In this document: piece after piece, positions 12,754 through 29,159 of the stretch
Layout: the number at the start of each line of letters is the position of its first letter
Position numbering within the stretch: the first letter of the stretch is position 1
Assembly (NCBI GenBank): GCA_028130375.1
Contig: GCA_028130375.1_3658.1
Direction: 5' to 3' (one strand)
DNA length: 64,000 nt
Source of the DNA: a phage
Notes under the pieces: model-generated
What the model saw: only the letters and a program-made list of their open reading frames with translations
Database searches by the model: none
Told to the model about the DNA's origin: nothing
Program-made: the position numbers and the translations under genes

Positions 12754-12781
12754 GCCCTGCCCGAAAGGGTGGGGCATTTTT
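12754..12781 (+). terminator. intrinsic terminator, second copy of the GNRA-loop hairpin
   Basis: GCCCTGCCC-GAAA-GGGTGGGGC then ATTTTTG, just after the SSB-like gene. Confidence 0.6.
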
Positions 12782-15953: not shown

Positions 15954-16279
15954 CAGAGATCATCATTTCAACTGCAGGGTATGTGTTCCTGACAATCATT
16001 GCACTGACCATTCTGGTTGTGGTATATGGAATTGTTATTCTCCCTATTCTTGAGACAATTAGTTTGTGTCGGTGTTGGAGAAAGGCTTACGGTCCACAGC
16101 CGTGGAAGGACTGGCCCCACCTTGTGCACATAGCGTTCTCTTATGCTTATGATCACGCCAGCAGTGCATGCATAACCGGGTATCACGCCCACAACTGGAG
16201 CTGGGAAGGGTTGAGGAAATGGAATGTTACAAAGACCATACCTCTCCGCATGTACAAACCTAAAAACAAAGACAGCTGA
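15950..16279 (+). CDS. putative membrane protein
   Basis: 109 aa; N-terminal hydrophobic segment ..ISTAGYVFLTIIALTILVVVYGIVILPIL.. Confidence 0.5.
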   Translation: MTEIIISTAGYVFLTIIALTILVVVYGIVILPILETISLCRCWRKAYGPQPWKDWPHLVHIAFSYAYDHASSACITGYHAHNWSWEGLRKWNVTKTIPLRMYKPKNKDS

Positions 16280-16324
16280 TACTTGAAAATTCCTGGCATA
16301 TCAAGTGTAAGGAGGATTTCTAAA

Positions 16325-16537
16325 ATGGATTTCCTCCTTTTGATATTTCACCGGGTTAGATATTTTAAAATTCTTAGAAAATCAGAAAATGGATCGAAAA
16401 CTAAAATGGATTTTTCAGAGCAGGCGCGACAAACCGAATCACTCATCCTATCGTTTGCACCATATTCCAGTCCACCATTACAGATTTCCCGCACATGCTT
16501 ACATCCTTCTACTGGAACTTCCTCCACTTACCCTTGA
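16325..16537 (+). CDS. doubtful small ORF in a repeat-rich region
   Basis: ATG behind AAGGAGG but sequence is low-complexity and overlaps AAATGGATTT repeats. Confidence 0.2.
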   Translation: MDFLLLIFHRVRYFKILRKSENGSKTKMDFSEQARQTESLILSFAPYSSPPLQISRTCLHPSTGTSSTYP

Positions 16538-16591
16538 CCTTTTATGGTAATAATCTAACCACTATCTTGAGGTTGCGGTACAGCTTTCCGG

Positions 16592-16678
16592 GTACTCGAT
16601 CTGTTTTTCGTTTCAAAGATTGAATTTTCTTAAAATTTTTCTCGATAAATTTCTCAGTACTCGATCTGTTTTTCGTTT
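16592..16678. repeat. direct repeats (2 x 22 bp GTACTCGATCTGTTTTTCGTTT) in an AT-rich non-coding island
   Basis: Identical 22-mers at 16592-16613 and 16657-16678, with nearby CGAAATCGATTTTTCG palindrome and AAATGGATTT repeats. Confidence 0.6.
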
Positions 16679-16885
16679 TCTGAATCGGATTTTCTGGAAA
16701 TCGTTCCGGAGCTCGACCTGAAATTTTTGGGAACGAAATCGATTTTTCGTTTTCAGAAATGGATTTTTAAAATTTCTATATGGGAATATTTTATGGGATA
16801 CTGTTTTATAGGAAATTGTTACGGAGGGTAATTAGCACGCTAATTAAATTTATTAAATGCGAGGAGTTCTCATTTAGAATTTTGA

Positions 16886-17215
16886 ATGATAATCATTCTC
16901 GTTTGCAGAATAACGGGCACCCCCGGTGATTGTCTCCCGGCCCCTGTTGCCCCGGCTTGTTATTATAGTATCACACAGGACAAAGAAGGCAAGGATTTTT
17001 TGCATAAATTTTTAAATGATAATGATAACCGTTCTCATTTTATGCAGCGCCCATCCCCGGTGGTTATCTCCCCCGTCACCGGTGCCTGCCGTCCTTTCGA
17101 TAGGTATATTGTGCCACCTGGCGGGGCCGCTGTCAACACCTTTCAAAAAAAATTATAACCAGGTGCGCCCACTGCCAGGACCTGGCGGGGCCAGTCTGGC
17201 AGGGGAGAGTGAAAG
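16886..17215. repeat. GC-rich repeated element family (two ~80-bp imperfect copies plus three ACCTGGCGGGG boxes)
   Basis: TTkAATGATAAT..CCCCGGTG(A/G)TT(G/A)TCTCCC.. at 16886-16965 and 17016-17100; ACCTGGCGGGG at about 17116, 17180, 17399; the 17-mer CCCGGTGATTGTCTCCC recurs inverted at 26051-26067. Confidence 0.5.
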
Positions 17216-17451
17216 CTTGCAAACCTGGTAGGGCTATGCTATAGGGTAGGCAACAACTGGAGAGGAGGTACAAAAATGAAAGGTAATATGATCCCCTGGA
17301 AAATGTAGCGACTAATGACGCTGAGGCTATCGCCATGGTTGAAAAGGCTATGGCGGGAGCGTTGGAACATAAAGAAGAGTACGAAAAAATGGTGGTTAAC
17401 CTGGCGGGGGCGGCAGGTGGATTCTATCATAAAAATAATTTAAAATAGTCG

Positions 17452-17479
17452 TTGACAACAAGGTTAATCATGGTATTAT
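17452..17479 (+). promoter_or_regulatory. sigma70-like promoter (TTGACA-16-TATTAT)
   Basis: -35 at 17452-17457, -10 at 17474-17479; first of a long series of promoters preceding the small genes. Confidence 0.5.
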
Positions 17480-17529
17480 TACCCTACAAGGTGAACAACA
17501 CCGCACTAACCAGTAAAGAGGATAAATTT

Positions 17530-17727
17530 ATGAACGCATACGGGATCAAAGTACGTCGCAACACTCGCCAGGTGGTCACCAATCAAGTGATTTGCCGGGT
17601 GGATGTAACCATCAACAACGGGCAAGGCCTTTATAAATTTCGTCGCGGTCATAGCTATACCCTGCAACAGCTTAATCGTTGCGCCCTGACAAAAGGTCAG
17701 ATCAACCACTGGTTTAATAAAAAATAA
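17530..17727 (+). CDS. hypothetical small basic protein
   Basis: ATG 17530 behind AAAGAGGA and downstream of promoter; track start 17452 is the -35 box. Confidence 0.45.
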   Translation: MNAYGIKVRRNTRQVVTNQVICRVDVTINNGQGLYKFRRGHSYTLQQLNRCALTKGQINHWFNKK

Positions 17728-17730
17728 GTA

Positions 17731-17759
17731 TTGACATATAGTCCGACACCAAATACACT
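17731..17759 (+). promoter_or_regulatory. sigma70-like promoter (TTGACA-17-TACACT)
   Basis: -35 at 17731-17736, -10 at 17754-17759. Confidence 0.5.
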
Positions 17760-17791
17760 AAAAGCACAAAAGACACTAAGAGGATAAAATC

Positions 17792-18190
17792 ATGAAAACC
17801 ACTACCTTTAATTTTGATAATGCAGACTTTTCTTTTTCTGATGTCAAGAACTGCCGCCGTGATCGTGGATTTTACAAGGCTTATAATCTGGTGGGCCTGG
17901 ACGATGACAATAATTTGCACGAAGTAGCTGAGATCCGGTATTATGCCGCCGCCAGCGGGAACACTTACTACTGCGTTTTTTGGATACACGACAACAAGAA
18001 CAATAAGTACGGCTATACTGGCGGCAAGGCGAGCGGTCACGGTTATGATAAAGCTAACGCAGCACTTGAGAGCGCATTAAATGCTATGGGGATCACTGCC
18101 GACGGCTGGATCTACGAAGAAGAGTTTTTGTCGGCACTTGCTGACCACCTAGGCTATAAAAAGCACATTGTAACATGCGCCCACGAATAA
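17792..18190 (+). CDS. hypothetical protein
   Basis: 132 aa; RBS AAGAGGA. Confidence 0.55.
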   Translation: MKTTTFNFDNADFSFSDVKNCRRDRGFYKAYNLVGLDDDNNLHEVAEIRYYAAASGNTYYCVFWIHDNKNNKYGYTGGKASGHGYDKANAALESALNAMGITADGWIYEEEFLSALADHLGYKKHIVTCAHE

Positions 18191-18196
18191 AAATCA

Positions 18197-18225
18197 TTGA
18201 CACGCTGCAAAATTTAAGTAAACTA
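18197..18225 (+). promoter_or_regulatory. sigma70-like promoter (TTGACA-16-TAAACT)
   Basis: -35 at 18197-18202; followed by 5' hairpin GGCGGGAA-TGT-TTCCCGCC at 18235-18253, then RBS and ATG 18273. Confidence 0.5.
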
Positions 18226-18272
18226 GACACAAAAGGCGGGAATGTTTCCCGCCAGCACAAAGGAAAAAGATC

Positions 18273-18677
18273 ATGAATAAGAACGTACGCCGCATCATGA
18301 ACGAGTTGGCAAACGATGAAAAAATTATTGACATGCATTTGATCAACATTTGCCGCCGTTGTGTAACATATAACAACCGCGCCGCAAAAGCGCGTGAGAT
18401 GAACGCAAAAGGCACCTTAAAGCCATTCCAGGTGGTGGTAAAGGCCATTAAAGATGTAACTAATACGGCAAACCAGGTACAGGGGAACACCAACGAGAGT
18501 ACCAATATTGATCCAGCTTACATCATGAAACGGATCCGGACCTGCAAGAACAAAGAGCAAGTGTATAATGTCATAGACTGGTTGGATTCTATGGGCGATG
18601 TGGTTTACAATAGGTTTTCTGCAGCTATCGAGATCCAGCTTGACAGGTTGGACGGTAAAGTACTGAAAACTTACTAA
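18273..18677 (+). CDS. hypothetical protein
   Basis: 134 aa; RBS AAAGGAAAAAG. Confidence 0.55.
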   Translation: MNKNVRRIMNELANDEKIIDMHLINICRRCVTYNNRAAKAREMNAKGTLKPFQVVVKAIKDVTNTANQVQGNTNESTNIDPAYIMKRIRTCKNKEQVYNVIDWLDSMGDVVYNRFSAAIEIQLDRLDGKVLKTY

Positions 18678-18679
18678 GT

Positions 18680-18725
18680 TTATTTTTAGATGGCCTTGAC
18701 TTCAGGGCCATCAATAAAGTAAACT
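18680..18725 (+). repeat. repeated 46-bp promoter/stem-loop element, copy 1
   Basis: TTATTTTTAGATGGCCTTGACTTCAGGGCCATCAATAAAGTAAACT: inverted repeat GATGGCC/GGCCATC encloses a -35-like TTGACT, then -10-like TAAACT. Confidence 0.6.
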
Positions 18726-18757
18726 AATCTCAACTAAGCGAAAAAGGGGGCTTTAAG

Positions 18758-18877
18758 ATGAGCACTACACGCCAATACACAAAGGTAACTATTATCGTTT
18801 GCGTTGTCGGTTACATCCTGGCGCAAATGTTAATGAGTAGCGCTAACAGTTTTGCAAAATTTTTCTTAAATTTTTAA
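18758..18877 (+). CDS. small hydrophobic peptide (39 aa)
   Basis: Not in the track; RBS AAAAAGGGGG; MSTTRQYTKVTIIVCVVGYILAQMLMSSANSFAKFFLNF. Confidence 0.3.
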   Translation: MSTTRQYTKVTIIVCVVGYILAQMLMSSANSFAKFFLNF

Positions 18878-18905
18878 TTGACAAACTGACTTAGATCGAT
18901 ATACT
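18878..18905 (+). promoter_or_regulatory. sigma70-like promoter (TTGACA-16-TATACT)
   Basis: -35 at 18878-18883, -10 at 18900-18905; followed by 5' hairpin GGGAA-AAC-TTCCC at 18919-18931. Confidence 0.5.
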
Positions 18906-18956
18906 TAAACACGTAAACGGGAAAACTTCCCAGAGCACACAAAAGGAGAAAACACC

Positions 18957-19298
18957 ATGACTACTATGACCGCCGCAGAAAAAGCTATGCAGATCGCCGC
19001 GCTGAAAAAACAGATCGCAGACCTTGAGAACAAGATCGATAACTTTGAAATCGACGAGGACAAGTACGACGAAAACTATGATGAATGGTTAGACGAGATC
19101 TACGGCGAAATTATGATCGGAAACATTTCTTTTCTTCCGTCGCGTATCCTCAAGGAGCTAGATCCTATCGCTTACCGCTGCGGATTTGGCGACTACATCG
19201 ACAGCCTGGATATTGAGGACGATGAAGAATACCAGGAACTACAGACAGAGTTAGAAGAAGCAAAAGAAGAGCTTGCGGAGCTGGAAGAAAACGAGTAA
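18957..19298 (+). CDS. hypothetical acidic coiled-coil protein
   Basis: 113 aa; Glu/Asp-rich helical repeats; RBS AAAGGAGAA. Confidence 0.55.
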   Translation: MTTMTAAEKAMQIAALKKQIADLENKIDNFEIDEDKYDENYDEWLDEIYGEIMIGNISFLPSRILKELDPIAYRCGFGDYIDSLDIEDDEEYQELQTELEEAKEELAELEENE

Positions 19299-19299
19299 G

Positions 19300-19345
19300 A
19301 TTATTTTTAGATGGCCTTGACTTCAGGGCCATCAATAAAGTAAAC
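19300..19345 (+). repeat. repeated 46-bp promoter/stem-loop element, copy 2
   Basis: Identical to copy 1. Confidence 0.6.
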
Positions 19346-19387
19346 TTTATACTGTTAACACTGAACTAATTCAGAGGAGTTAAAACC

Positions 19388-19633
19388 ATGGCAGCACTAA
19401 TCACCAAATATTATGCCCCTACCAACACCAAAAGCGCCCGTATCATGGTAAAAGGCTTCGGACGTAAAAAGGTTTACACCTGGGATTATGCCTTAGACAC
19501 GGAAGACAACTACACCAACGCGATGACCGATTTTATTAATGATCTGAACACGCGGATCTTGACAAATTATAAAATTACCGATATTGCCTATATAGGGGAA
19601 GGCGGGATCTGTTTTGTCGGTATCGTCAAATAA
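19388..19633 (+). CDS. hypothetical protein
   Basis: 81 aa; RBS AGAGGAG. Confidence 0.5.
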   Translation: MAALITKYYAPTNTKSARIMVKGFGRKKVYTWDYALDTEDNYTNAMTDFINDLNTRILTNYKITDIAYIGEGGICFVGIVK

Positions 19634-19709
19634 GCTGTTTTTTCGGTGGTCCTGGTAGCAGGGCCATCTATAAAGATAGTTTATCAACACAATGAAAGGA
19701 GAAAGTAAC

Positions 19710-20063
19710 ATGATCAGCGGGGCAAGTTTTATTATTGGCGCTATTGCTACGGCTTTAATTGTAAACAAGATCCAATCCAAAAACGAAAAAGAGAGCAACG
19801 CGCTTACAGAATACCCATTTTGGGTATTCAACGACAATGAAGACTACATTATCAAGTACAAGGATGAGAAAGGGGACCAGGTAACACCGAGACCGATCCC
19901 AGCTTACAAGATGCAAGAAACATTATACCGCTTAAAGGCTGGCGGCGCAAAAATCGTAGACTTTTGGGGATATGATTGCAAGGATCAGGAGACTATAAAA
20001 CGTCGTATCCGGGCGATTCAGGCAAATATTGAGATCAGTAAAGGGGGCGTTTATGAAAATTAA
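19710..20063 (+). CDS. hypothetical protein with N-terminal transmembrane segment
   Basis: ATG 19710 behind AAAGGAGAAAG; ..ASFIIGAIATALIV.. Confidence 0.5.
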   Translation: MISGASFIIGAIATALIVNKIQSKNEKESNALTEYPFWVFNDNEDYIIKYKDEKGDQVTPRPIPAYKMQETLYRLKAGGAKIVDFWGYDCKDQETIKRRIRAIQANIEISKGGVYEN

Positions 20064-20250
20064 TTTCGAAAAAATTGTAAAGCGCCCCCACGATTCCGAA
20101 GAGCTGCCGGAACGCCGCCAGCGTAACAATAAACTGAATAAACCGAAAAGGTTCGGGAAGATCTGGAGAAATCACTATGATCGCAAATTACCGAGCCTGC
20201 TTTTGGAACGTGAACGACAGGCGGAACGATACCGCCACAAAGACAAATAG
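20053..20250 (+). CDS. small basic protein
   Basis: ATG 20053 behind AAAGGGGG; Arg/Lys rich. Confidence 0.35.
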   Translation: MKINFEKIVKRPHDSEELPERRQRNNKLNKPKRFGKIWRNHYDRKLPSLLLERERQAERYRHKDK

Positions 20251-20431
20251 CAACCAACGCCCCGCCATTGTGAGGGGCTTTTTATTTCTATCCCGCCGAT
20301 AGCGCCCCTGGTTGGCCCTACAAGCGCCATAAAGGCCCCTACCTATGCAATCCCCTTTCTTAACCTGAAAACAGCGTCTAGGGCCGTTTTATGGCGTTAA
20401 AAATATTATTGACAGTGATTCTATTTAAAGC

Positions 20432-20460
20432 TTGACACCTTGGGATAGTCCGGATATACT
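20432..20460 (+). promoter_or_regulatory. sigma70-like promoter (TTGACA-17-TATACT), with a second TTGACA at 20409
   Basis: -35 at 20432-20437, -10 at 20455-20460. Confidence 0.5.
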
Positions 20461-20495
20461 AACCACATCAAAGCAAGAAGGAAGGAGTAAACGCC

Positions 20496-20756
20496 ATGCG
20501 TAAATTAAAAAATTTTGATAAAGTCGATGTTGTCCTGAATAATTTTTACTACTGCAATAATAAAGCCGTTTGGTGGCGTGATAGTTCCACCGATAAAGTT
20601 AAAGCGCGCTTTCTCCAAGGGCACTGGCAAGGCCGTCCAGTGATTAAAATCCTGGGGCAATTGGTAGCGTTTAAAAATTGCCGCCGTGTTGATGACGTTG
20701 AAGAGATTCTAAACATTTTACGCCACAATAATTTAAAAAATAGTGTTGACAAGTAA
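20496..20756 (+). CDS. hypothetical protein
   Basis: 86 aa; RBS GAAGGAAGGAG. Confidence 0.5.
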   Translation: MRKLKNFDKVDVVLNNFYYCNNKAVWWRDSSTDKVKARFLQGHWQGRPVIKILGQLVAFKNCRRVDDVEEILNILRHNNLKNSVDK

Positions 20757-20773
20757 GTCTCAATAAGTATACT
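20746..20773 (+). promoter_or_regulatory. sigma70-like promoter (TTGACA-16-TATACT)
   Basis: -35 at 20746-20751; followed by 5' hairpin GGCGGGAA-GTT-TTCCCGCC at 20784-20802. Confidence 0.5.
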
Positions 20774-20830
20774 TAAACACACAGGCGGGAAGTTTTCCCG
20801 CCACTAACAAAGAAAATAGGAGAAAATATC

Positions 20831-21454
20831 ATGACCACCGTTAACATTACTACAGGTTACAATTTATCTTTCGACGTGCTGACCGGCGAACAAAAAGAAA
20901 AAGCTGTTGAAATGGTCCGCGAAAGAGAAGAACACAGCGGGGATAACTTTTTTGCAGAAAGTGTAATTGAGTACTATAAAGAATATGTTTTTCCAGAGTA
21001 TGGCCTTGAAGATACCGAAATACATTGGTCCGGCTTTTGGTGTCAAGGCGACGGCGCATCAATTAGCGCTGAAAATGTAAACTTAGAAAAATTCTTGCGT
21101 AAGGTTAAAGCGCTTACAAAATTCCGCTTAATTAGACACTTGTTCGGCACAATGCATGATGGCGAACTGTCAGCCAGCGTTGAACGTATCCCGTTTAGCC
21201 ATTATCATCACGAAAACACAATAGGCGGGTGCATCGATACCAATTGGCTAGACCTGACCACCAAGCAAGAGGATAAAGTTGAAGAGCTGGAAGAGCTGAT
21301 CACCGAGACGGTACGGGAGTTATCCCGCAAGGTTTACGTAGACCTGGAGCAAGCCTATCTTGAACAATTCACCACCGAAAACCTGATCGGCCTTATCGAG
21401 GCCAATGATTGGCGGTTTGATGTGGATGAATATGGCGAGATGACTTTTTCATAA
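20831..21454 (+). CDS. hypothetical protein
   Basis: 207 aa; RBS AATAGGAGAAA. Confidence 0.55.
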   Translation: MTTVNITTGYNLSFDVLTGEQKEKAVEMVREREEHSGDNFFAESVIEYYKEYVFPEYGLEDTEIHWSGFWCQGDGASISAENVNLEKFLRKVKALTKFRLIRHLFGTMHDGELSASVERIPFSHYHHENTIGGCIDTNWLDLTTKQEDKVEELEELITETVRELSRKVYVDLEQAYLEQFTTENLIGLIEANDWRFDVDEYGEMTFS

Positions 21455-21462
21455 ATAAAGTG

Positions 21463-21490
21463 TTGCAATAACCTAAAAACCTGCTATATT
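21463..21490 (+). promoter_or_regulatory. sigma70-like promoter (TTGCAA-16-TATATT)
   Basis: Followed by 5' hairpin GGGGCAA..TTGCCCC at 21500-21518. Confidence 0.45.
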
Positions 21491-21542
21491 AGAACTCAAG
21501 GGGCAAGAAGTTTGCCCCACACAAAACAAAGAGGAAAACATC

Positions 21543-21923
21543 ATGAAAAGCACCACTAAAGCCATTGACACCGTTATGTTTAACCTGGTTACCTTTCGCG
21601 AGGATATGAAAGATCTTCCACGTGAAACAGTGCGCGATCACATTGAAAACTATCGCAAACTAATCAAAGAGTTGCCTTTAAAACGTGACCAGTACGCGGC
21701 TAACGCTATGCTTAACGCTATGATCAAGAAAATGATCCAGTGTGATTTGACTTTAGCTTATGATTATGCAGGTGGTCGTTTTGCAGTATACAATCAGCCC
21801 GTGCCCGGTATGAGCACCACCGAAGAATTGCACGCGTTAAATCTGAAACAAGATGTATGGGATAACATGCCCCGCGTGGTGGTGTGGGCAGAAAGCGGAA
21901 AGATTTACGGCGATAATTTTTAA
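21543..21923 (+). CDS. hypothetical protein
   Basis: 126 aa; RBS AAAGAGGAAAA. Confidence 0.55.
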   Translation: MKSTTKAIDTVMFNLVTFREDMKDLPRETVRDHIENYRKLIKELPLKRDQYAANAMLNAMIKKMIQCDLTLAYDYAGGRFAVYNQPVPGMSTTEELHALNLKQDVWDNMPRVVVWAESGKIYGDNF

Positions 21924-21933
21924 TCAGGTAACA

Positions 21934-21959
21934 GGCGGCATATTTGCCGCCTTATTGTT
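21934..21959 (+). terminator. intrinsic terminator (GGCGGCA-TATT-TGCCGCC, T-rich tail)
   Basis: 7-bp stem then TTATTGTT. Confidence 0.5.
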
Positions 21960-21987
21960 AAACAGAACTGCAAAAGAGGTACATAGA

Positions 21988-22359
21988 ATGGAATTTATTA
22001 TTTTGGCTGTAGTAGTTGCCTTGTTCAACGCCTGGATAGCTGGCAAAATAGGTAGATCCGCTTTTCTATGGTTTGTTATATCTATTTTCCTGGGAGTGGT
22101 TGCAACCATTGTACTAGTTATCCTTGCAATTGTTGACAAGGATAATAATAAGAAGGGTAAAGTATTTTCCGACCTGTATGACGCCCAAACTTTTGTTAAC
22201 GCCTATTATAGTGATCTTCCGGTCTCCTTGCGCTGCAGCCTGGCGCAACAAGTTTTTGATGAGGCTAAAACCAGAGATCAAGCCCATGAGATATGTTTAA
22301 CTGAGGCGGATCGCCTATTTGAGAGGAATAGAAAATATGTGGGCCAACCGTTTAAATAA
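21988..22359 (+). CDS. putative membrane protein (two transmembrane segments)
   Basis: ATG 21988 behind AAAAGAGG; ..ILAVVVALFNAWIAGKIG.. and ..FVISIFLGVVATIVLVILAIV.. Confidence 0.5.
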   Translation: MEFIILAVVVALFNAWIAGKIGRSAFLWFVISIFLGVVATIVLVILAIVDKDNNKKGKVFSDLYDAQTFVNAYYSDLPVSLRCSLAQQVFDEAKTRDQAHEICLTEADRLFERNRKYVGQPFK

Positions 22360-22582
22360 TGCCACGTTAATTAATCCCTTTAGTGAAGATTTGAAGCCAG
22401 CCGCCTGGCGTGACGGATTCAATAACGAACGCTTTATTTTCAGGCCTGATCTTGAGGAATTTTATAACAATGGATCGAACAACAGCGGAGATAATTTTTC
22501 TTGTGGTGTGTGTCGTGATGGTACTCCTGGGGGCCATTGTAAACCACGTCACTACTACCAGGAGGAAAGGGGGAGACGATGA
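22337..22582 (+). CDS. hypothetical protein (frame choice uncertain)
   Basis: ATG 22337 behind GAGAGG; an overlapping alternative frame (22410-22595) encodes a hydrophobic peptide. Confidence 0.3.
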   Translation: MWANRLNNATLINPFSEDLKPAAWRDGFNNERFIFRPDLEEFYNNGSNNSGDNFSCGVCRDGTPGGHCKPRHYYQEERGRR

Positions 22583-22698
22583 CAACCAAGGATAAGCCAT
22601 GCACCGATAAGGTGCGCCGCGTTATGGTATGGCTTGAGATTATCGCCCTTGAAATATTGCTAGGAGTAGGGATGTACTTTATCGCTGTAAGTAACTAG
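22579..22698 (+). CDS. small hydrophobic peptide (39 aa)
   Basis: Not in the track; strong RBS AGGAGGAAAGGGGGAG; MTTKDKPCTDKVRRVMVWLEIIALEILLGVGMYFIAVSN; followed by a terminator. Confidence 0.35.
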   Translation: MTTKDKPCTDKVRRVMVWLEIIALEILLGVGMYFIAVSN

Positions 22699-22702
22699 GA
22701 AC

Positions 22703-22731
22703 GGCCCCCGATCATGGGGGCCTATCTTTTT
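22703..22731 (+). terminator. intrinsic terminator (GGCCCCC-GATCAT-GGGGGCC, TATCTTTTT)
   Basis: 7-bp GC stem followed by T-tract. Confidence 0.6.
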
Positions 22732-22837
22732 AAAAAATTTTTCTTCCGTGGTGTTGCAATCCGGTCCGGAATGTGGATAATAACAATCAACGGGGAGCTA
22801 ATCCCCACCACCACAAAAACCAGAAAGGAGAAACAAA

Positions 22838-23038
22838 ATGAGCAACAATATCCGCGTTATTAACTTCAAAAAAGAAGAAAAAATTGCCGTGCTGATTGAC
22901 GGTCAAGAAATCTTCAAGGGCGACTATGAAGATCATCAAACGGCGATTAGTATCACTCGCGTGATTGGTTACCATAATTTTTACCCCCAAGGCGCTGAGG
23001 CAGCGGTTAAACGAATCAAAGAGATTGTAGGCCTGTAA
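22838..23038 (+). CDS. hypothetical protein
   Basis: 66 aa; RBS AAAGGAGAAA. Confidence 0.5.
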   Translation: MSNNIRVINFKKEEKIAVLIDGQEIFKGDYEDHQTAISITRVIGYHNFYPQGAEAAVKRIKEIVGL

Positions 23039-23041
23039 AAT

Positions 23042-23087
23042 TTATTTTTAGATGGCCTTGACTCCAGGGCCATCAATAAAGTAAATT
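23042..23087 (+). repeat. repeated 46-bp promoter/stem-loop element, copy 3
   Basis: TTATTTTTAGATGGCCTTGACTCCAGGGCCATCAATAAAGTAAATT, two mismatches to copies 1 and 2. Confidence 0.6.
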
Positions 23088-23131
23088 TAAACCCTGTTAA
23101 AATACCACACAGTTAACAAGGAGTGATAGAC

Positions 23132-23431
23132 ATGTTTATCCAGGCTAATAATCTTTATTTCTTTGATGGTCAGATCGTAGATGGTGTGGAAGTGGAGATC
23201 ACCGGGTGCCCTGGCGGTCAGGCTATGACTTTTCGGAATAATGCCTTTGATGATTCTCATATCGTTATGAGAATGGAAGTTACGAAGCTGGACGACAAGA
23301 AAACACTTATTGACTATTCTGTGAAAGATCATCCAGACTACCGCATGATCCATGGCGATTTGTGCATTGTTGACCGTGACAAGGTGGGCGGCATTGTGAT
23401 CGCTATTGTGAACGATGTTTTCTCAAACTAA
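23132..23431 (+). CDS. hypothetical protein
   Basis: ATG 23132 behind CAAGGAG. Confidence 0.5.
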   Translation: MFIQANNLYFFDGQIVDGVEVEITGCPGGQAMTFRNNAFDDSHIVMRMEVTKLDDKKTLIDYSVKDHPDYRMIHGDLCIVDRDKVGGIVIAIVNDVFSN

Positions 23432-23448
23432 TTTCAGCAGGCGATTTT

Positions 23449-23799
23449 ATGAAAGTCAAACTATATTACCTTAATGAGCTTAACCCCCTTGCCCAGGTCC
23501 GCGCCCTAGCTAATACCTTGATTTGTGAGAAATCTGTATATTGTGTTGAGCTTAACGCCATGCGTGAACGTCTCAAAGGTGGTTACTTTGACATCCATGC
23601 TGCAATCAACGGCCTGAATATAGAATTTATACGCTTACGTAACAGCCGCCGGAATCTGGCAAGAATGGAACAAGATCCGGCCCACCTTCGTAAGCTGGTT
23701 ATTGAAAATCATCTGATGTTTAATGCCGAGGGTGATTATTACCATTTTCACCGCAAACGCTGGTACCGTGGCGGCAATACAGGCAAGAATGCAAAATAA
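23449..23799 (+). CDS. hypothetical protein
   Basis: 116 aa ORF. Confidence 0.5.
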   Translation: MKVKLYYLNELNPLAQVRALANTLICEKSVYCVELNAMRERLKGGYFDIHAAINGLNIEFIRLRNSRRNLARMEQDPAHLRKLVIENHLMFNAEGDYYHFHRKRWYRGGNTGKNAK

Positions 23800-24001
23800 G
23801 GCCCCAGGCAGGGCCTACAGCGACCTAAACACTAGCAGGCTATGCAATCGCATAGCCTTTATTGTTTTGACGTTACAACGGCCCTAAGGTGCTTAAAAAA
23901 AAATTTTAAATAAAGGCTTGCATCAAGTCGAACAATATGGATAATAAGAGGTGTAGGGAGGTGATGCCTCCAATCATTAACAAAAACAGGAGTTAAAGAA
24001 T

Positions 24002-24286
24002 ATGGCTATTGTTACCGCTGGCGATGTAGTAAAAATGGAAGCGAAGTATTTAAAAGCTGGTATGCATATCATCCGCAATGATCTTGAACTGGTCCTCACT
24101 ATGGTTGATTATAACCCTGGTCAAGATTATCCAAGTGTTGACTACTTTTTTGAGTATGTCGATGAAGAGCTAAAAGAGGATGAGGCCTACTGCGGAGAAT
24201 TCTGCAACTACTTTTGCCCTGACGAGGTTGTAAAAGTTATCTACCAACCTGGCGTACCTTTCCCGCTACACGCTATCAATAAATAA
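24002..24286 (+). CDS. hypothetical protein
   Basis: 94 aa; RBS ACAGGAG. Confidence 0.5.
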   Translation: MAIVTAGDVVKMEAKYLKAGMHIIRNDLELVLTMVDYNPGQDYPSVDYFFEYVDEELKEDEAYCGEFCNYFCPDEVVKVIYQPGVPFPLHAINK

Positions 24287-24341
24287 ACCCGGCGGGGCCG
24301 AAAAGGCCCCCAATTATGAAAATAAAGAGAGGTAAATCATC

Positions 24342-24575
24342 ATGATGGAACAAATTAAACGCACTGAGGCTATTAATGGCAATGTGATCTATTTTGTCAG
24401 CAAAAACGAAAAAGGCGTACCCTATGCGGCGGTAACAGTACAACCTGACGGCGATTATTGGTTTACTGTGTACGGCGCTTATTCTTTTGGGCGTCCAGTG
24501 CATGATAAAATTTTGAAAGTAGCGAACCCTACCGGGAAGAATATCACAGCAGAAAAATTTTTTGAAAATAGTTGA
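24342..24575 (+). CDS. hypothetical protein
   Basis: 77 aa; RBS AAAGAGAGG. Confidence 0.5.
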   Translation: MMEQIKRTEAINGNVIYFVSKNEKGVPYAAVTVQPDGDYWFTVYGAYSFGRPVHDKILKVANPTGKNITAEKFFENS

Positions 24576-24650
24576 CATGACCATATAAGACTGTAATATA
24601 TAAATCAAAGGGGGCAACAAGCCCCACCAACCACAAAGAGGATAAAAATC

Positions 24651-24830
24651 ATGGCTATTATTGCAAAGACTGAGATCGTAGGCTTAGATTCTATTCTCCT
24701 CGCATATGAGGAAGCTATAGAAATGTATGTGGTTTCCTATGGTGAGTATATCCGTGAATATAAATCTATTGATCTGGCTTTTGAATGTTATATTCGCCAG
24801 GTTAATAAAGCGTACGATGATTATCGTTAA
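24651..24830 (+). CDS. small hypothetical protein (59 aa)
   Basis: Not in the track; RBS AAAGAGGA; preceded by a promoter and 5' hairpin. Confidence 0.4.
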   Translation: MAIIAKTEIVGLDSILLAYEEAIEMYVVSYGEYIREYKSIDLAFECYIRQVNKAYDDYR

Positions 24831-24921
24831 AATAGTTTGACAACAAACAACCATCTAACAAAGCATAATACATAAGGTGGTAGAATGATCCGCCACCCGG
24901 AACAAAGAAGAGGTAAACACC

Positions 24922-25026
24922 ATGAAACAAAAATTAATTGATGCTGTGATCCTGGTTATTGCCCTGGGTATTGGCCTGATTGCAACCATGGCTAATATGA
25001 TCTTGTCTTCCAACGGTATCTGGTGA
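24922..25026 (+). CDS. small hydrophobic peptide (34 aa)
   Basis: RBS AAGAAGAGG; MKQKLIDAVILVIALGIGLIATMANMILSSNGIW. Confidence 0.3.
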   Translation: MKQKLIDAVILVIALGIGLIATMANMILSSNGIW

Positions 25027-25035
25027 GGTTGGCAA

Positions 25036-25251
25036 ATGATCACTAACAAAACAGGCAAAACAGAATTTTTACGCAACTTACAGATCGGCAAGCCTGAGAT
25101 CTGGTATTGCACTAAAACACCACGTGACGAAATGAAAGACTTCACCGCCACGTTGCAACGGGTAAAGATATCCATCACGCAGAAAAAGGCCTTATTAGTG
25201 GTGGAAGGTGAGATCCCCCAAACCGTTGTTATAGTTGAGCGTACAGCATAG
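25036..25251 (+). CDS. hypothetical protein
   Basis: 71 aa ORF. Confidence 0.4.
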   Translation: MITNKTGKTEFLRNLQIGKPEIWYCTKTPRDEMKDFTATLQRVKISITQKKALLVVEGEIPQTVVIVERTA

Positions 25252-25342
25252 TTTAATTTATACCGATACCCGAAAATTAACCAACAAAGCATAAACAGGC
25301 GGTTACCGCCGCCTTAAACGTAGCAGAAAGAGGATAGACACA

Positions 25343-25627
25343 ATGAAAAAGATGATCGCAGTGGTTGCCCTGGTTGTTGGACTTAATGCGCCTGTAATGG
25401 CTAAAGAGCTGGCAAAAGAGGTTAATCTAACGGATATTCATGCCGTCAATAAAATCGGGGTTACTTATCGCTTATGCCTTGCCGCTAAAACTTTCCAGGA
25501 CGGCACGACAGAGTACTACGGATTCGAGGGTATCCGGTGCGGTGAGCTTGCTCGCGACCTTAAGGAAGATCCAGACCTGGAAGATCTGCCCATCACCGTA
25601 AACGGTAAAGCTTACGTAAACCGTTAA
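25343..25627 (+). CDS. putative secreted protein (N-terminal signal peptide)
   Basis: MKKMIAVVALVVGLNAPVMA.. signal-like N-terminus; RBS AAAGAGGA. Confidence 0.5.
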   Translation: MKKMIAVVALVVGLNAPVMAKELAKEVNLTDIHAVNKIGVTYRLCLAAKTFQDGTTEYYGFEGIRCGELARDLKEDPDLEDLPITVNGKAYVNR

Positions 25628-25629
25628 CC

Positions 25630-25764
25630 ATGAGAAAGATAATCATCACCTTGGGGATTGTGGCGGGATCGCTGGCGCTCTTTCCCCTTATGGTTAGGTA
25701 TGTGCTGATCAGTATTGTCCTGGTAGTCAGTGATCTATTGGAAACGGTTGGCACCTTGTTTTAA
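25630..25764 (+). CDS. small hydrophobic peptide (44 aa)
   Basis: ATG 2 nt after upstream stop; two hydrophobic segments. Confidence 0.3.
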   Translation: MRKIIITLGIVAGSLALFPLMVRYVLISIVLVVSDLLETVGTLF

Positions 25765-25779
25765 AGAGCGATAAAAAAA

Positions 25780-25971
25780 ATGAATGTCGAACAAGTTAGA
25801 AAGGTATTGGCGGTACTGCGTTATCATAATCATAGAAAGGTCATAGACGATCCTGATTATGTCGATTCAAACCTGGAAGAGGATACACTACAAGCCATAA
25901 GTAACATGCAAGAATTGCTAAAGCGCATGACAGAGAAAAACCGACCGGACTACATAGGCGAAAAAATATAA
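25780..25971 (+). CDS. hypothetical protein
   Basis: 63 aa ORF. Confidence 0.45.
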   Translation: MNVEQVRKVLAVLRYHNHRKVIDDPDYVDSNLEEDTLQAISNMQELLKRMTEKNRPDYIGEKI

Positions 25972-26031
25972 TATTTATAAACTACAAAACAGGGCTTGCA
26001 ATGGTCCTGTTTTTTGTTATACTTATTCCAC

Positions 26032-26074
26032 GGCAGGCACCTGGCGACGGGGGAGACAATCACCGGGCCTGCCT
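26032..26074. repeat. GC-rich hairpin element related to the 16.9-17.4 kb repeats
   Basis: GGCAGGC..GCCTGCC stem encloses CACCTGGCG and GGGAGACAATCACCGGG, the exact reverse complement of 16923-16939. Confidence 0.5.
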
Positions 26075-26181
26075 GTCATATAAGAACTATAAAAACCGTT
26101 GACATCTGCCATGGGGTGGGGTAACATTTATCTTGAAGGGGCAAAAGTGCCCACACAACAACCAGGAGAGAGGAAAACATT

Positions 26182-26454
26182 ATGTCAAGCTGGATTAATC
26201 AAGAAGTCGAATCACGTTTTAATGCTATATGGGATCTCATCGAAAAAGAGGACGGAACATCAAGCCCCTACCTCAACAATTTGGAATTCCATTTTGTGGA
26301 AGCGATGAACGCAGAACATGATCACGAAGGTGGCGCGGATGAGTTCGCTAAAGGTTATGGCTTTAACAATGCCAACGAAATGATCGAGGCGGTAGTACTC
26401 CAGGCTGAGGAAGATTATCAATTAAAAACGCTTGAATTCTGCCGCCGTAAGTAA
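26182..26454 (+). CDS. hypothetical protein
   Basis: 90 aa; RBS AGGAGAGAGG. Confidence 0.5.
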   Translation: MSSWINQEVESRFNAIWDLIEKEDGTSSPYLNNLEFHFVEAMNAEHDHEGGADEFAKGYGFNNANEMIEAVVLQAEEDYQLKTLEFCRRK

Positions 26455-26514
26455 TAAGATAATGACACGGGCCAAAAGGCCCACTAATCAGAACCACACA
26501 AAGAGAGAAAGAAA

Positions 26515-26733
26515 ATGACAACCCGTAAAATTAAAGTTGTTTGCATTGAATCGACTGGGGGCGCTTTTGTAGTTGGTCAGGAATATAATGCGGTTTTAAT
26601 GGGTACGGATTGGAAGGTTAAAGGCCTTAATGGTTACGAGTACGGCACTACTTGCGGCTTGCGTGGTCGAATCGGATACGTGAGTTTAGACAATAAAGAA
26701 AAATTTGTTTTCGACACCCTTGTGAGTAAATAG
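26515..26733 (+). CDS. hypothetical protein
   Basis: 72 aa; RBS AAAGAGAGAAAG. Confidence 0.5.
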   Translation: MTTRKIKVVCIESTGGAFVVGQEYNAVLMGTDWKVKGLNGYEYGTTCGLRGRIGYVSLDNKEKFVFDTLVSK

Positions 26734-26810
26734 CATGAATTGCTAAAGACTGATCTGCGAACTGCTGTATTATCAACTAATCAAAACGAACCACATAAAG
26801 AGTAAACATC

Positions 26811-27074
26811 ATGAAACGTCTGGATCAGCTTAAATTAGTTCAGTACATGGCCTACAGAATTCTTGAAGTCCAAAAAGGTAGCAAAAAAGAGGTTTGCGAG
26901 AAAGCTTATAAGATCTTTACCCGCAAAAAAGATGACTGGATGCTGCGCCAGACCAAAAAGGCTGACATCTTGGGGTACCTGGAAGAAGAGATCCGCCTTG
27001 AAGAGCAAGAAGAGATCCGCCGTAGTGAGGCAGATTATCAGGCAGCTTGGGAAAGCTGGATGAGTAACAAATAA
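26811..27074 (+). CDS. hypothetical protein
   Basis: 87 aa; an alternative overlapping frame exists. Confidence 0.45.
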   Translation: MKRLDQLKLVQYMAYRILEVQKGSKKEVCEKAYKIFTRKKDDWMLRQTKKADILGYLEEEIRLEEQEEIRRSEADYQAAWESWMSNK

Positions 27075-27139
27075 TACAACAAGTTACGGTCAGGGGGTAA
27101 TAAAGCCCCTTGATCACATAAAAATTATGCTATCCCTGG

Positions 27140-27169
27140 TTGACAGGGATCGGCAGTTTTGCTATATTC
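27140..27169 (+). promoter_or_regulatory. sigma70-like promoter (TTGACA-18-TATATT)
   Basis: -35 at 27140-27145, -10 at 27164-27169. Confidence 0.45.
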
Positions 27170-27217
27170 TTTTTTGAAGGGAAGTTGTAAGAAAATTAAC
27201 TAAGAGGTAAAAACACC

Positions 27218-27637
27218 ATGAACATTAAATCTAATAATCCGGCATATAGCTTTGATAACGCTTTTTGTCACGGTCCGGCGGCGAAAGGATTCGAAATCGA
27301 TGGTAAACTAATTATTGTCAATGTTGACGGGGAAGAGGTTGCAGTATATCCGGTGGCAGACGTAAAAAGTCGTTTACAATGCCGCATGGATGTTACCGCC
27401 TACCAGCTTGATCCGGTCCGCATAGTTGCCCTGGTCCTGGAAGGAGAAATTAAAGCCATGCACCATAGCAACAGGTTTATTGGTGACGCTCAGGATAATA
27501 TGAAAGTATGCCGCCATAAAGTTAATGAAGTGCTTAAAGAGTACGGCTATAAAGATCTTATGATCAAACGTGAGGAAAAATTCCGCTACCGTAACGACCT
27601 GGCAAATCGGATTTTTGAAATATACGAATCATTATAA
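27218..27637 (+). CDS. hypothetical protein
   Basis: 139 aa; RBS TAAGAGG. Confidence 0.55.
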   Translation: MNIKSNNPAYSFDNAFCHGPAAKGFEIDGKLIIVNVDGEEVAVYPVADVKSRLQCRMDVTAYQLDPVRIVALVLEGEIKAMHHSNRFIGDAQDNMKVCRHKVNEVLKEYGYKDLMIKREEKFRYRNDLANRIFEIYESL

Positions 27638-27655
27638 TTTTTAACTGAATTATCA

Positions 27656-27679
27656 AGGGGCTTAGGCCCCTTTCTTTTT
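27656..27679 (+). terminator. intrinsic terminator (GGGGC-TTAG-GCCCC, TTTCTTTTT)
   Basis: Closes the plus-strand arm. Confidence 0.55.
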
Positions 27680-28298
27680 GTCTGCTCTTCCCCCCTACCA
27701 TAAACGGCCCTACCTGGCAAGTGGAATAATTGACGAGCCATCAATCCCACACACTGTACAAATATACATGTAAAATAGCTATTGCATAACCTTTCATTGT
27801 GTGGTAGCGGTGCTATTTTTTACCCGTTTTCCTTCCAAAATTGCACGTAATGCAGTTATTGCACAAAATTTAACCTGATGCACATCTTCAATATCTTGTC
27901 AACAACTAAAAATCTTTATAAGTCATACACTTACACAAACCAAAGAGCGTGTTCTACGTGAAAAATCGAGTATAACTATAGCCGCCAGATCTCAGAATTT
28001 ACGTACGCTCGCCATTCTATAGCCTGCTAAGCATTTATTCCAACCATAGAATAACGGAATAGTCAATACCTGCATAAAATAATTATTCGTGTAAACTGCA
28101 TAACATAAATCAGCTTAGGTGTCAACATTTTTCGTAAACAGTCTGAAATTATCACGGTGAGTTATCATAAACAGAGAAATCTTTAGTCGTCTAATGTTTA
28201 CTGTACGTTACTATACTAACTGAAATCATTAGATGACTAATAGAAAGATAAGAAATAATTAACAATACAATTATTTTATCTGTAACAATAAGGCAACT

Positions 28299-28531
28299 AT
28301 GCAAACGAATGGCATGGCGCGACGGAGTCGCGACATAATATAAAAGCAGTAACCATCACCCCCGTGATAGTTTGTCTGCAAACTATTAATCAGATCATAG
28401 TTGCCTTGTATTTAGTTAATCATGACATAACAAGCAAGGCAACTATAGATCTTCTAATAGTTGCCCTGCTTTTATATTATGTCATAGATTATTAACTTGC
28501 TAATAGTTATCATGCAAACGAATGGCATGGC
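28299..28531. repeat. 20-bp direct repeat pair (ATGCAAACGAATGGCATGGC) flanking GGCAACTAT palindromes
   Basis: Exact copies at 28299-28318 and 28512-28531; AAGGCAACTATAG..CTAATAGTTGCCCT inverted repeats between them. Confidence 0.6.
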
Positions 28532-28544
28532 TTATCATTTCCAT

Positions 28545-28620
28545 GTAAACTGTCAAGGTGTAAACTATCCAGGCGTAAACAGTCTATGCGGGAACAATCT
28601 ATACGTGAACAGTGAAACAT
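28545..28620. repeat. iteron-like array (5 x GTAAAC(A/T)(A/G)TC-like units, about 15-bp period)
   Basis: GTAAACTGTCA, GTAAACTATCC, GTAAACAGTCT, GGAACAATCT, GTGAACAGTG in tandem. Confidence 0.55.
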
Positions 28621-29159
28621 GAAATAATAACAGTCGTTATTGTTCCATATTGTGTCATAGTATGTCACCATTATGTCTAAAGTGTCTAAGGTGTCAGACA
28701 AGTTTTTCTCCTCTTTGTCAAGTGCTGCATGAAAAATTTACAATCTTGTATGGTAGCATTTTTGCGGCCATGTTTACATTCAGCGATGTATGTATAAGCC
28801 TTGTTGTGTGGGCGTTTAGACGTCTAGACGGTTGGAAGTCCACAGGTCAATATCTAATCTATCGGCTGCTAACTATATCCCACACAAATAGTAATAAATA
28901 TAATTGTTATATGCGTAAACAGTAACTCATGTTATCAATCCCTGTATGTATCGCCAGTGGTGCGCATAATGGGTATTATGTTAAATTGCCCGTAATGATA
29001 ACAGTTCTCACAATGATAGGTATTCTCATTCATCCACACAAAATAGGTTGCAAATGTTGTGCCACTGTGTGAACGGCCTGGCCTATTAATTTCTCTCACT
29101 GCCTCGATATTTGAGAATTGTTATAAGAATGAGAAGTATTCCCATTCCGTCCGCCTGGC

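Follow-up and report, generated by a model that had tools for sequence, protein, structure and literature searches.

The locus and its repeats

The window, a stretch of 64,000 nucleotides from contig GCA_028130375.1_3658.1 (assembly GCA_028130375.1), is from an rV5-like coliphage (Vequintavirus). A repeat search of the window finds exact 46-nt matches at 18680-18725 (copy 1) and 19301-19346 (copy 2), and a copy with two mismatches (T>C at 23064 and C>T at 23086) at 23042-23087 (copy 3). None of 100 shuffled controls gives any repeat match. With the upstream stop codon as its start, the repeat extends to 51 nt, and a fourth, diverged copy with 69% identity (copy 2d) lies at 19631-19681. The first-pass annotation had listed three 46-bp copies, placing those at 18680 and 23042 correctly but copy 2 at 19300 instead of 19301, and its degenerate relative at about 19641-19680 is our copy 2d.

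The repeats are intergenic and lie among small non-essential ORFs of a plastic early region, all four within 4.4 kb. Copy 1 begins inside the stop codon of a 134-aa ORF (18273-18677), copy 2 is directly 3' of the stop codon of a 113-aa ORF (18957-19298), copy 2d begins at the stop codon of an 81-aa ORF (19388-19633), and copy 3 sits 3' of the stop codon of a 66-aa ORF (22838-23038). The cassette between copies 1 and 2 (18726..19297, + strand) holds a 39-aa ORF (18758-18877), the strong sigma-70 promoter P192 (18878-18905, + strand) with a 5'-UTR hairpin, and the 113-aa ORF; the copy 1-copy 2 unit measures 621 bp from copy start to copy start. The segment between copies 2 and 2d (19347..19630, + strand) contains the 81-aa ORF. 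The ten neighbouring ORFs tested all belong to PHROG families of unknown function, and none has a Pfam domain above threshold.

The same copies occur in about 120 sequenced relatives, where each of the four sites has its orthologue. We derived a covariance model from 18 variants; run without filters on the window, then on the remaining rV5 genome, it finds no copies beyond the four sites. Neither 5,426 E. coli genomes nor the GTDB genomes contain a match to the repeat, and a host origin is rejected. The locus is confined to about 122 Vequintavirus records, and therefore there is no deeper covariation to gather. Homologues of the flanking 81-aa ORF occur in unrelated phages but in no other genus of the Vequintavirinae.

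A known RNA family is rejected, as an Rfam scan of 16000-29000 returns nothing significant (lowest E-value 0.7). Rfam 15 has no covariance-model match at copies 1, 2, and 2d, and the match at copy 3 is a chance-level hit to rhtB sRNA (E 3.8; 23 bits versus a gathering score of 55). A CRISPR-repeat mimic is dropped as well, since the repeat bears no known resemblance to the E. coli CRISPR repeats. Isolation of rV5-like phages for use in biocontrol and therapy is widespread, but their gene regulation is almost unstudied. The Vequintavirus literature that we searched holds no transcriptome study, no transcript-end data, and no description of this repeat. The hairpin repeat element is previously undescribed.

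Each repeat folds as a single sense-strand hairpin

The entire repeat, and not just its 7-bp inverted repeat, folds as one sense-strand hairpin. From the base up, an A/U-rich lower stem of 10 bp (12 bp in copy 2d) is followed by a 2x3 internal loop and then by a G/C-rich upper stem of 10 bp, which a tetraloop closes. In copy 1 (18677..18725, + strand; dG -25 kcal/mol, z -7.3; 82 bits; pair probability 0.96-1.0 in a 300-nt context), the lower stem pairs 18677-18686 with 18716-18725, the upper stem pairs 18689-18698 with 18703-18712, the internal loop comprises 18687-18688 and 18713-18715, and the tetraloop spans 18699-18702. Copy 2 (19298..19346, + strand; dG -21.1, z -5.2; 78.6 bits) has the same architecture. 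Copy 2d (19631..19683, + strand; dG -27, z -6.9; 76.8 bits) keeps the two-stem architecture with its longer lower stem, and copy 3 occupies 23039..23087 (+ strand; dG -23.6, z -5.6; 79.2 bits). Across the copies, folding energies range from -21 to -27 kcal/mol and z-scores from -5 to -7, and pairing probabilities are near 1 within a 300-nt context. RNAalifold independently returns the same structure.

The GATGGCC/GGCCATC inverted repeat around TTGACT and the -10-like box 18 nt further on (TAAACT, or TAAATT in copy 3), both described earlier, are present. The sigma-70-like hexamers are located at 18696-18701 and 18720-18725 in copy 1, at 19317-19322 and 19341-19346 in copy 2, and at 23058-23063 and 23082-23087 in copy 3 (all + strand). 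The A/T-rich upstream stretch is also present. It pairs with the '-10' region, a point missed earlier, and therefore the whole repeat is one long hairpin, whose lower stem takes in the '-10' box as well as the stop codon. Just 3' of the upper stem, the + strand reads AAUAAAG and the - strand UAAAAAU. An intrinsic terminator is rejected because the hairpin has no U-tract; in addition, the repeats are absent from the terminator scan.

Substitutions preserve pairing. The C>T change at 23086 in copy 3 is offset by G>A at 23040. Copy 2d has lost the -35 and -10 hexamers and keeps every pair, through compensatory and G·U changes that work on the + strand only; it folds poorly on the - strand (z -1.2, versus -6.9 on the + strand). 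Among the variants, 98.6-98.8% of the cells in the hairpin alignment are paired, versus 36-58% when the partners are slid. Both-sided changes occur at four lower-stem pairs, upper-stem substitutions (five pairs, at least six events) all retain pairing through G·U, and one U·G pair is kept in 40 of 41 distinct sequences; this covariation comprises few independent events in closely related genomes. The G·U pairs and the poor minus-strand folds point to the sense RNA. The hairpin is also kept in a divergent IMG/VR genome (L027) despite altered hexamer spacing. A non-Watson-Crick position (16/41; A·A, A·G, or C·U) and the unpaired 3' nucleotides are conserved in all copies.

Conservation follows base pairing, not promoter hexamers

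Among relatives, nucleotide diversity is 0.8-3.7% in the canonical hairpins (0.8% in copy 3), compared with 6-18% in the untranslated stretch just 3' of the hairpins and 8-20% at third codon positions. In the canonical copies, TTGAC and TAAACT/TAAATT are invariant at standard spacing; the '-35/-10 spacer' is invariant too, and all four bases occur at the sixth -35 position. The control promoters P192, P186, and P179 show the reverse pattern, with conserved hexamers and a varying spacer. The sigma-70 expectation of fixed hexamers and a free spacer thus fails at the repeats among orthologues, and conservation follows base pairing, not the hexamers. At pairs 6-52 and 7-51, variation is confined to the 5' side, hinting at a possible sequence constraint on the '-10' strand.

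These patterns bear on the proposal that the repeats serve first of all as early sigma-70 promoters equipped with an A/T-rich UP-like tract, in which the palindrome is incidental or an operator and the whole is a PeSL-like cassette. The sequence TTGACT-18 nt-TAAACT matches sigma-70 at 9/12 positions with an 18-nt spacer, where a strong promoter of the PeSL kind would be near consensus with a spacer of about 17 nt; only ~4% of composition-matched hairpins reach 9/12 by chance. Some relatives have TTGACA, the -10 context AAGTAAACTA recurs in the predicted promoter P194, and the elements lie 30-45 nt before start codons with ribosome binding sites. However, the repeats are absent from the 33 promoters predicted for rV5, copy 2d is conserved with compensatory changes in spite of having no -35, and the divergent IMG/VR genome has a hexamer spacing of 20 nt, or one of 15 nt if a different hexamer is taken. 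Unlike the spacers of neighbouring promoters, that of the repeats is no less invariant than the hexamers, and a stronger promoter already lies upstream of each copy with no terminator between. We therefore consider a primarily promoter function unlikely. Promoter activity in the three canonical copies is possible, and the sigma-70 resemblance may reflect a weak added activity there. An N4-type hairpin promoter is dropped: the listed parts of the rV5 record include no annotated RNA polymerase gene. For annotation, the repeats counsel caution, as apparent -35 and -10 boxes can be the strands and loop of an RNA helix.

The conservation also makes it very unlikely that the repeats are functionless, either as duplication leftovers or as a small selfish palindromic element homogenised by gene conversion. 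The inter-copy cassettes are dispensable, and copies 1 and 2 have loop variants in common in single genomes, as that explanation would have it. Yet diversity is 3-20 times below that of adjacent non-coding sequence and third codon positions, copy 2d evolves by compensatory change, the four sites are orthologous throughout the relatives, and there are no copies elsewhere in the genome or in the host.

The hairpins lie within predicted early transcription units

The sigma-70 promoter P194 of rV5 (rV5 Table S4; TTGACA-16-TAAACT) lies at 18197..18224 on the + strand, and the terminator scan finds no terminator-like site on the + strand between P194 and copy 1. A transcript from P194 would run through copy 1. 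Upstream of copy 3, a promoter-like site (TTGCAA-16-GATAAT; 22754..22781, + strand) has conserved hexamers and a variable spacer in relatives and is preceded by a terminator hairpin (22703-22722). A transcript from this site would cross the 66-aa ORF and copy 3. All hairpins follow stop codons and lie 3' of predicted stronger sigma-70 promoters with no intervening terminator. The hairpins end 26-44 nt 5' of the next start codon, and the downstream genes have ribosome binding sites.

Each repeat would be the DNA template of a ~50-nt sense-strand RNA hairpin in early polycistronic units, and the repeats probably act on mRNA rather than mainly as promoters. We infer from the sequence that the sites are transcribed through, that they act post-transcriptionally, and that they are cleaved.

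Resemblance to RNase III processing signals

We consider the repeat an intercistronic processing or stability hairpin and, as the likeliest case, a site for host RNase III of the R1.1 type known from T7, with a probability of roughly 55%. The E. coli RNase III signal is an irregular double helix of ~22 bp (PMC3867540). The helix of the repeat is ~22 bp, or two A-helical turns, made of 10 bp and 10-12 bp with a 2x3 junction, and it fits this rule. Every copy has an internal loop or mismatch at the predicted target site, as in phage sites that are cleaved on a single strand. The preferences derived from uR1.1 are U-A and U·G in the distal box (db), and G-C, A-U/U-A, A-U, and A-U/U-A in the proximal box (pb), with G-C excluded at pb2 and pb4 (PMC1540722, PMC3867540). 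When the R1.1 register is assumed, the canonical copies match at the distal box (U-A/U·G) and at pb2 (A-U), have an acceptable mismatch at pb4, and are non-optimal at pb1 (U-A) and pb3 (G-C). Copy 2d, in the same assumed register, has C-G at db2 and G·U at pb2.

Like the T7 RNase III signals (R1.1, R1.3, and others), the repeats are intercistronic hairpins of early polycistronic mRNA with promoters nearby; the T7 sites are interleaved with promoters. As in T7 R1.1, the 10-bp upper stem is capped by a tetraloop and joins the lower stem through an internal loop, for about two helical turns in total; U-A and U·G adjoin the loop-closing pair, and a mismatch takes the place of the U·C pair of R1.1. 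Differences are that the repeats have no sequence homology to the T7 sites, depart from the uR1.1 optimum at pb1 and pb3, and carry promoter-like hexamers within the hairpin, not beside it.

The putative cut is single, on the 3' side of the internal loop, and is predicted to fall after 18715, 19336, 19671, and 23077. Cleavage would leave the upstream mRNA with a protective 3' hairpin and free the downstream cistron. In the isolate 241Ecol014PP, a chimeric hairpin has a shifted lower stem and the phage is viable, which counts against hairpin processing.

The three copies are near-identical over 46 nt, beyond the need of a pure structural constraint. The excess must be accounted for by sequence-specific recognition, by gene conversion, or by an overlaid promoter. 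The RNA could instead be bound by a phage or host protein other than RNase III, as a translational or stability operator, a factor-dependent attenuator, or an anti-terminator. The excess identity, the invariant loop A and C, the conserved U·G, and the conserved 16/41 position with its bulged U would agree with such a site, and four sites in one early region would suit a small regulon. However, PHROG and Pfam offer no candidate protein among the ten neighbouring ORFs, the ribosome binding site downstream lies outside the hairpin, and the loop sequence differs in copy 2d. We give this alternative a small probability.

More tentatively, and with well under even odds, the same 46 nt may have a triple role. 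On DNA, they would be a weak sigma-70 promoter with the -35 in the hairpin loop; on read-through RNA, they would fold into a processing hairpin of the RNase III type and so uncouple adjacent cistrons; and as portable direct repeats, they would be linkers for the loss and gain of cassettes. If true, a phage lineage unrelated to T4 would have its own compact counterpart of PeSLs, with the promoter placed in a hairpin. Under the processing interpretation, a covarying conserved RNA hairpin at four early intercistronic sites is a handle on post-transcriptional control in Vequintavirus, with the predicted cut sites given to the nucleotide.

Comparison with other repeated stem-loops

Bacterial REP elements and Neisseria Correia repeat-enclosed elements are repeated palindromic intergenic sequences that are transcribed as mRNA hairpins and influence how stable the segment upstream of them is. 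For Correia elements, both promoter creation and cleavage by RNase III have been reported. Both are host elements with hundreds of copies, and Correia elements have terminal inverted repeats and target-site duplications. The phage repeats differ in that they are not host elements, do not number in the hundreds, and show neither such terminal inverted repeats nor target-site duplications.

The repeats had been likened to the PeSLs described in T4-like phages (PMC2839356, PMC4122927), in which a terminator stem-loop is followed by an AT-rich tract, the -35, and the -10 (PMC4122927). The likeness lies in repeated intergenic cassettes among small ORFan early genes, in the combination of an A/T-rich tract, sigma-70-like hexamers, and a stem-loop, and in the removal of ORFan cassettes by recombination between neighbouring copies. 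The analogy fails on architecture. In the Vequintavirus repeats, the -35 is enclosed by the stem, the hairpin makes up the entire element and has the AT-rich tract within its stem, and this stem is not a terminator upstream of a promoter, with no U-tract on either strand. In addition, there are four copies in 4.4 kb versus dozens across hyperplastic regions, the promoter match is weak (9/12), and the phage is not T4-like.

Recombination between neighbouring copies

The three canonical copies are near-identical direct repeats and therefore substrates for homologous recombination, which would remove the small gene cassettes between neighbours. Comparison of gene order in relatives locates breakpoints at the repeats. 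Precise deletions between copies 1 and 2, which take out the 621-bp unit, are found in phiWec189, ECP26, ECP32, ime, magaca, and one metagenomic contig (IMG/VR L010); these five isolates and the contig span at least three flank lineages. In 241Ecol014PP, a deletion between copies 2 and 2d removes the segment 19347..19630 and leaves the chimeric hairpin. Each deletion junction is a chimeric repeat. No junction between copies 2 and 3 or between copies 1 and 3 occurs in 121 records. The data support the conclusion that recombination between repeats deleted small gene cassettes in related phages. Outside the T4 group too, short regulatory repeats would cause early ORFan cassettes to be lost precisely, which is relevant to phage genome engineering and to the reading of mosaicism.

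The suggestion of a recombination hotspot holds for these precise deletions but not for lineage switches, which show no clear enrichment at the repeats. When 14 genomes are typed segment by segment, almost every segment is mosaic, and the repeats are rejected as preferred switch points. Other indels are not bounded by repeats, namely those of rV5_ev146, a 350-bp gap in rV5, and a replacement in O157 typing phage 14.

The junctions inside the repeat, and the perfect 7-bp inverted repeat around the -35, could also be read as signs of a DNA-level element: a palindrome that a dimeric regulator uses as its operator, a cruciform, or the target of a cassette-shuffling site-specific recombinase. However, ordinary homologous recombination over 15-46 nt explains the junctions, and both mosaicism and indels extend beyond the repeats. 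Moreover, the substitutions are asymmetric and retain G·U pairing on the + strand alone, a pattern expected to weaken a palindrome in DNA, and a 20-bp arm with compensatory changes is unlike an operator. A DNA-level element is thus highly improbable.

An 'ACC' loop variant is common to copies 1 and 2 within the genomes of nomine and inoa, and therefore suggests gene conversion between these two copies.

Copies and distribution of the repeat

The near-identical 46-nt copies reported by the first-pass annotation are present. Copies 1 (18680-18725) and 2 (19301-19346) are exact, and copy 3 (23042-23087) has two mismatches; the start of copy 2, previously given as 19300, is corrected to 19301. No such matches are expected in shuffled sequence. 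A repeat finder defines a unit of 51 nt that starts at the upstream stop codon, and places the degenerate relative noticed at about 19641-19680 at 19631-19681, with 69% identity (the fourth copy). In the 64-kb window, a covariance model run with filters off recovers these four sites and no others, and it finds no further copies in the remaining rV5 genome.

The source phage is an rV5-like coliphage (Vequintavirus), and the 8 kb around the repeats are 91-97% identical to many isolates. The 51-nt repeat occurs in 121 phage records, nearly always at three places per genome, and a search of phage records finds none in other genera. The hairpin that it encodes has no convincing match in Rfam and no match in E. 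coli or GTDB genomes. Neither the 33 promoters nor the 20 terminators that the rV5 genome paper (PMC3606486) predicts include the repeat, and the rV5 record annotates no feature at it. The repeat is a real, conserved hairpin family of the genus Vequintavirus, with no earlier description in the literature searched. The surrounding genes are all on the plus strand, small, and assigned to PHROG families of unknown function; none has a Pfam domain above threshold. Among the GenBank MG0656xx entries, about 17-22 records named "Campylobacter phage" belong to Vequintavirus and share more than 90% identity with the window; this host label is probably wrong.

The entire repeat folds as one hairpin

An A/T-rich upstream stretch and an inverted repeat around the -35-like box had been described as separate parts. 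The description is correct, but in folding the "-10" region is the pairing partner of the A/T-rich stretch, which makes the entire repeat one hairpin. It consists of a 10-bp lower stem (AGUUUAUUUU/AAAGUAAACU), a 2x3 internal loop, and a 10-bp upper stem (GAUGGCCUUG/CAGGGCCAUC) closed by a tetraloop. Free energies range from -21 to -27 kcal/mol (z-scores -5 to -7), pair probabilities are 0.5-1.0 with 300 nt of context, and RNAalifold independently gives the identical structure. The hairpin starts within the upstream ORF's stop codon, and its 3' end lies 26-44 nt ahead of the next start codon.

The fourth copy is the key case, in which the hexamers are lost and the fold is identical. TTGACT is replaced by CTGGTA and the TAAACT box is gone too, and the fold has -27 kcal/mol (z -6.9); on the minus strand, folding is no better than that of shuffles (z -1.2). 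Compared with the canonical copies, the lower stem shows two-sided replacements (C-G in place of U-A, and U-A in place of A-U), and every change in the upper stem is to or from G·U.

Among 18 variants, 98.6% of cells are paired, versus 36-58% with the partners slid, and four pairs show changes on both sides. A larger set from 24 sources (72 instances, of which 41 are distinct) has 98.8% of cells paired; the upper helix is 100% paired though five of its pairs vary, and all but one of the 41 distinct sequences (40 of 41) keep the lower-stem U·G. In copy 3, the C>T "mismatch" is offset by a G>A change at its pairing partner. Copy 1 of a divergent IMG/VR genome has a 5-nt loop, an altered 3' strand and a hexamer spacing of 20 nt, and retains pairing. 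The pair counts, the kept U·G, the compensated mismatch and the pairing retained in the divergent genome indicate that the repeat is a sense-strand RNA structure.

Across 14 genomes, diversity (pi) is 0.8-3.7% in the canonical hairpins, 6.1% in the fourth copy, 6-18% in the untranslated stretch just 3' of the hairpins, and 8-20% at third codon positions.

Possible promoter activity and comparison with PeSL

In line with the first-pass annotation, a scan for sigma-70 promoters scores TTGACT-18 nt-TAAACT (copy 3: TAAATT) as a 9/12 match, a level that only ~4% of dinucleotide-shuffled or hairpin-preserving shuffled sequences reach. Sigma-70 promoter activity of the canonical repeats is also favored by TTGACA in some relatives, by a -10 context similar to that of the predicted rV5 promoter P194, and by two lower-stem pairs that vary on the 5' strand only. 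However, a stronger promoter precedes each copy with no intervening terminator, and we therefore regard activity as a promoter as a possible, secondary property. The nearby predicted promoters P192, P186, and P179 keep both hexamers and vary in the spacer; the repeat shows the reverse, with an invariant "spacer" and a "-35" whose sixth base takes all four values.

The promoter-early stem-loop (PeSL) of T4-like phages is a terminator stem-loop followed by an AT-rich tract and a strong promoter, present in many copies (PMC2839356, PMC4122927). The proposed resemblance holds for setting and recombination behavior, but not for architecture, terminator, or copy number. A true PeSL-type order lies nearby at 22703-22781, where a terminator hairpin (GGCCCCCGATCATGGGGGCC) is followed by a T/A-rich tract and TTGCAA-16-GATAAT. 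In addition, strong sigma-70-like promoters at 18878-18931, 20746-20802, 21463-21520, and 22754-22810 each have a short G/C hairpin ~10 nt downstream (e.g. GGCGGGAAGTTTTCCCGCC) and then a conserved ribosome-binding region (ACACAAAAGGAGAAAACACCATGA family). They form a second type of repeated promoter/5'-UTR hairpin cassette.

Comparison with the T7 RNase III site R1.1

No U-tract follows the hairpin on either strand, so it is not an intrinsic terminator. Its 10-bp upper stem with a tetraloop is like that of T7 R1.1. Judged by the base-pair preferences of uR1.1, proximal-box positions 1 and 3 of the canonical copies are non-optimal (PMC1540722). In the R1.1 register, proximal-box 2 is A-U, proximal-box 4 is a mismatch, and the U-A and U·G of the distal box are the same as in R1.1. 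We take R1.1 to be cut at nt 5887 of the published T7 map, three nucleotides beyond the upper stem. By analogy, the repeat hairpins would be cut after 18715, 19336, 19671, and 23077. We favor reading the repeat as a signal for RNA processing or stability that also serves as a recombination substrate.

Recombination between copies

Gene order in related phages reveals rearrangement breakpoints at the repeats. In an IMG/VR contig (L010), a single chimeric repeat connects the upstream flank of copy 1 with the sequence downstream of copy 2, with loss of a 621-bp unit comprising a 39-aa ORF, promoter P192, and a 113-aa ORF. The same junction is found in phiWec189, ECP26, ime, ECP32, and magaca. Flank distances place these deletions in at least three lineages, the nearest relatives of which retain the cassette. 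In phage 241Ecol014PP, a chimera of copy 2 and the fourth copy, which still folds, has removed an 81-aa ORF. No junctions of copy 3 with copy 1 or 2 are present in the 121 records.

The suggestion that the repeats are recombination hotspots is thus borne out in part: precise deletions with chimeric-repeat junctions occur in relatives, but almost every segment of the region is mosaic, and its other indels lie away from the repeats. Therefore, the repeats promote local deletions but do not clearly stand out as the main sites of crossover.

Other features of the window

Compared with relative loci L001-L022, the early ORFan region (17792-24286) shows mosaicism in almost all gene-sized segments among 14 relatives, and the two flanks of one gene often have different nearest relatives. 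Phage rV5_ev146 lacks three blocks (18260-18769, 20201-26057, and 27112-27655), copies 1 and 3 included. At each gap, the flanking blast alignments overlap in the relative by ~10-18 nt, suggesting junctions at short shared sequence rather than at the repeats. Unrelated phages of Escherichia (CAjan, slur01, and relatives), Pseudomonas, and Klebsiella encode homologues, at 31-47% identity, of the 81-aa ORF (19388-19633) that separates copy 2 from the fourth copy, which suggests that this small early gene is widely exchanged.

Two terminator-like hairpins (GCCCTGCCCGAAAGGGTGGGGCTTTTT), at 2587-2613 and 12754-12780, are nearly identical and separated by 10 kb. The ORF-poor stretch of ~1 kb at 16400-17450 corresponds to the "non-coding" box on the rV5 map and contains three direct repeats of ~57 nt each (16585-16780). 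Two Fur-box-like sequences, at ~16884-16902 (GAATGATAATCATTCTC) and ~17016-17040 (AATGATAATGATAACCGTTCTCATT), are each followed by a G/C-rich segment.
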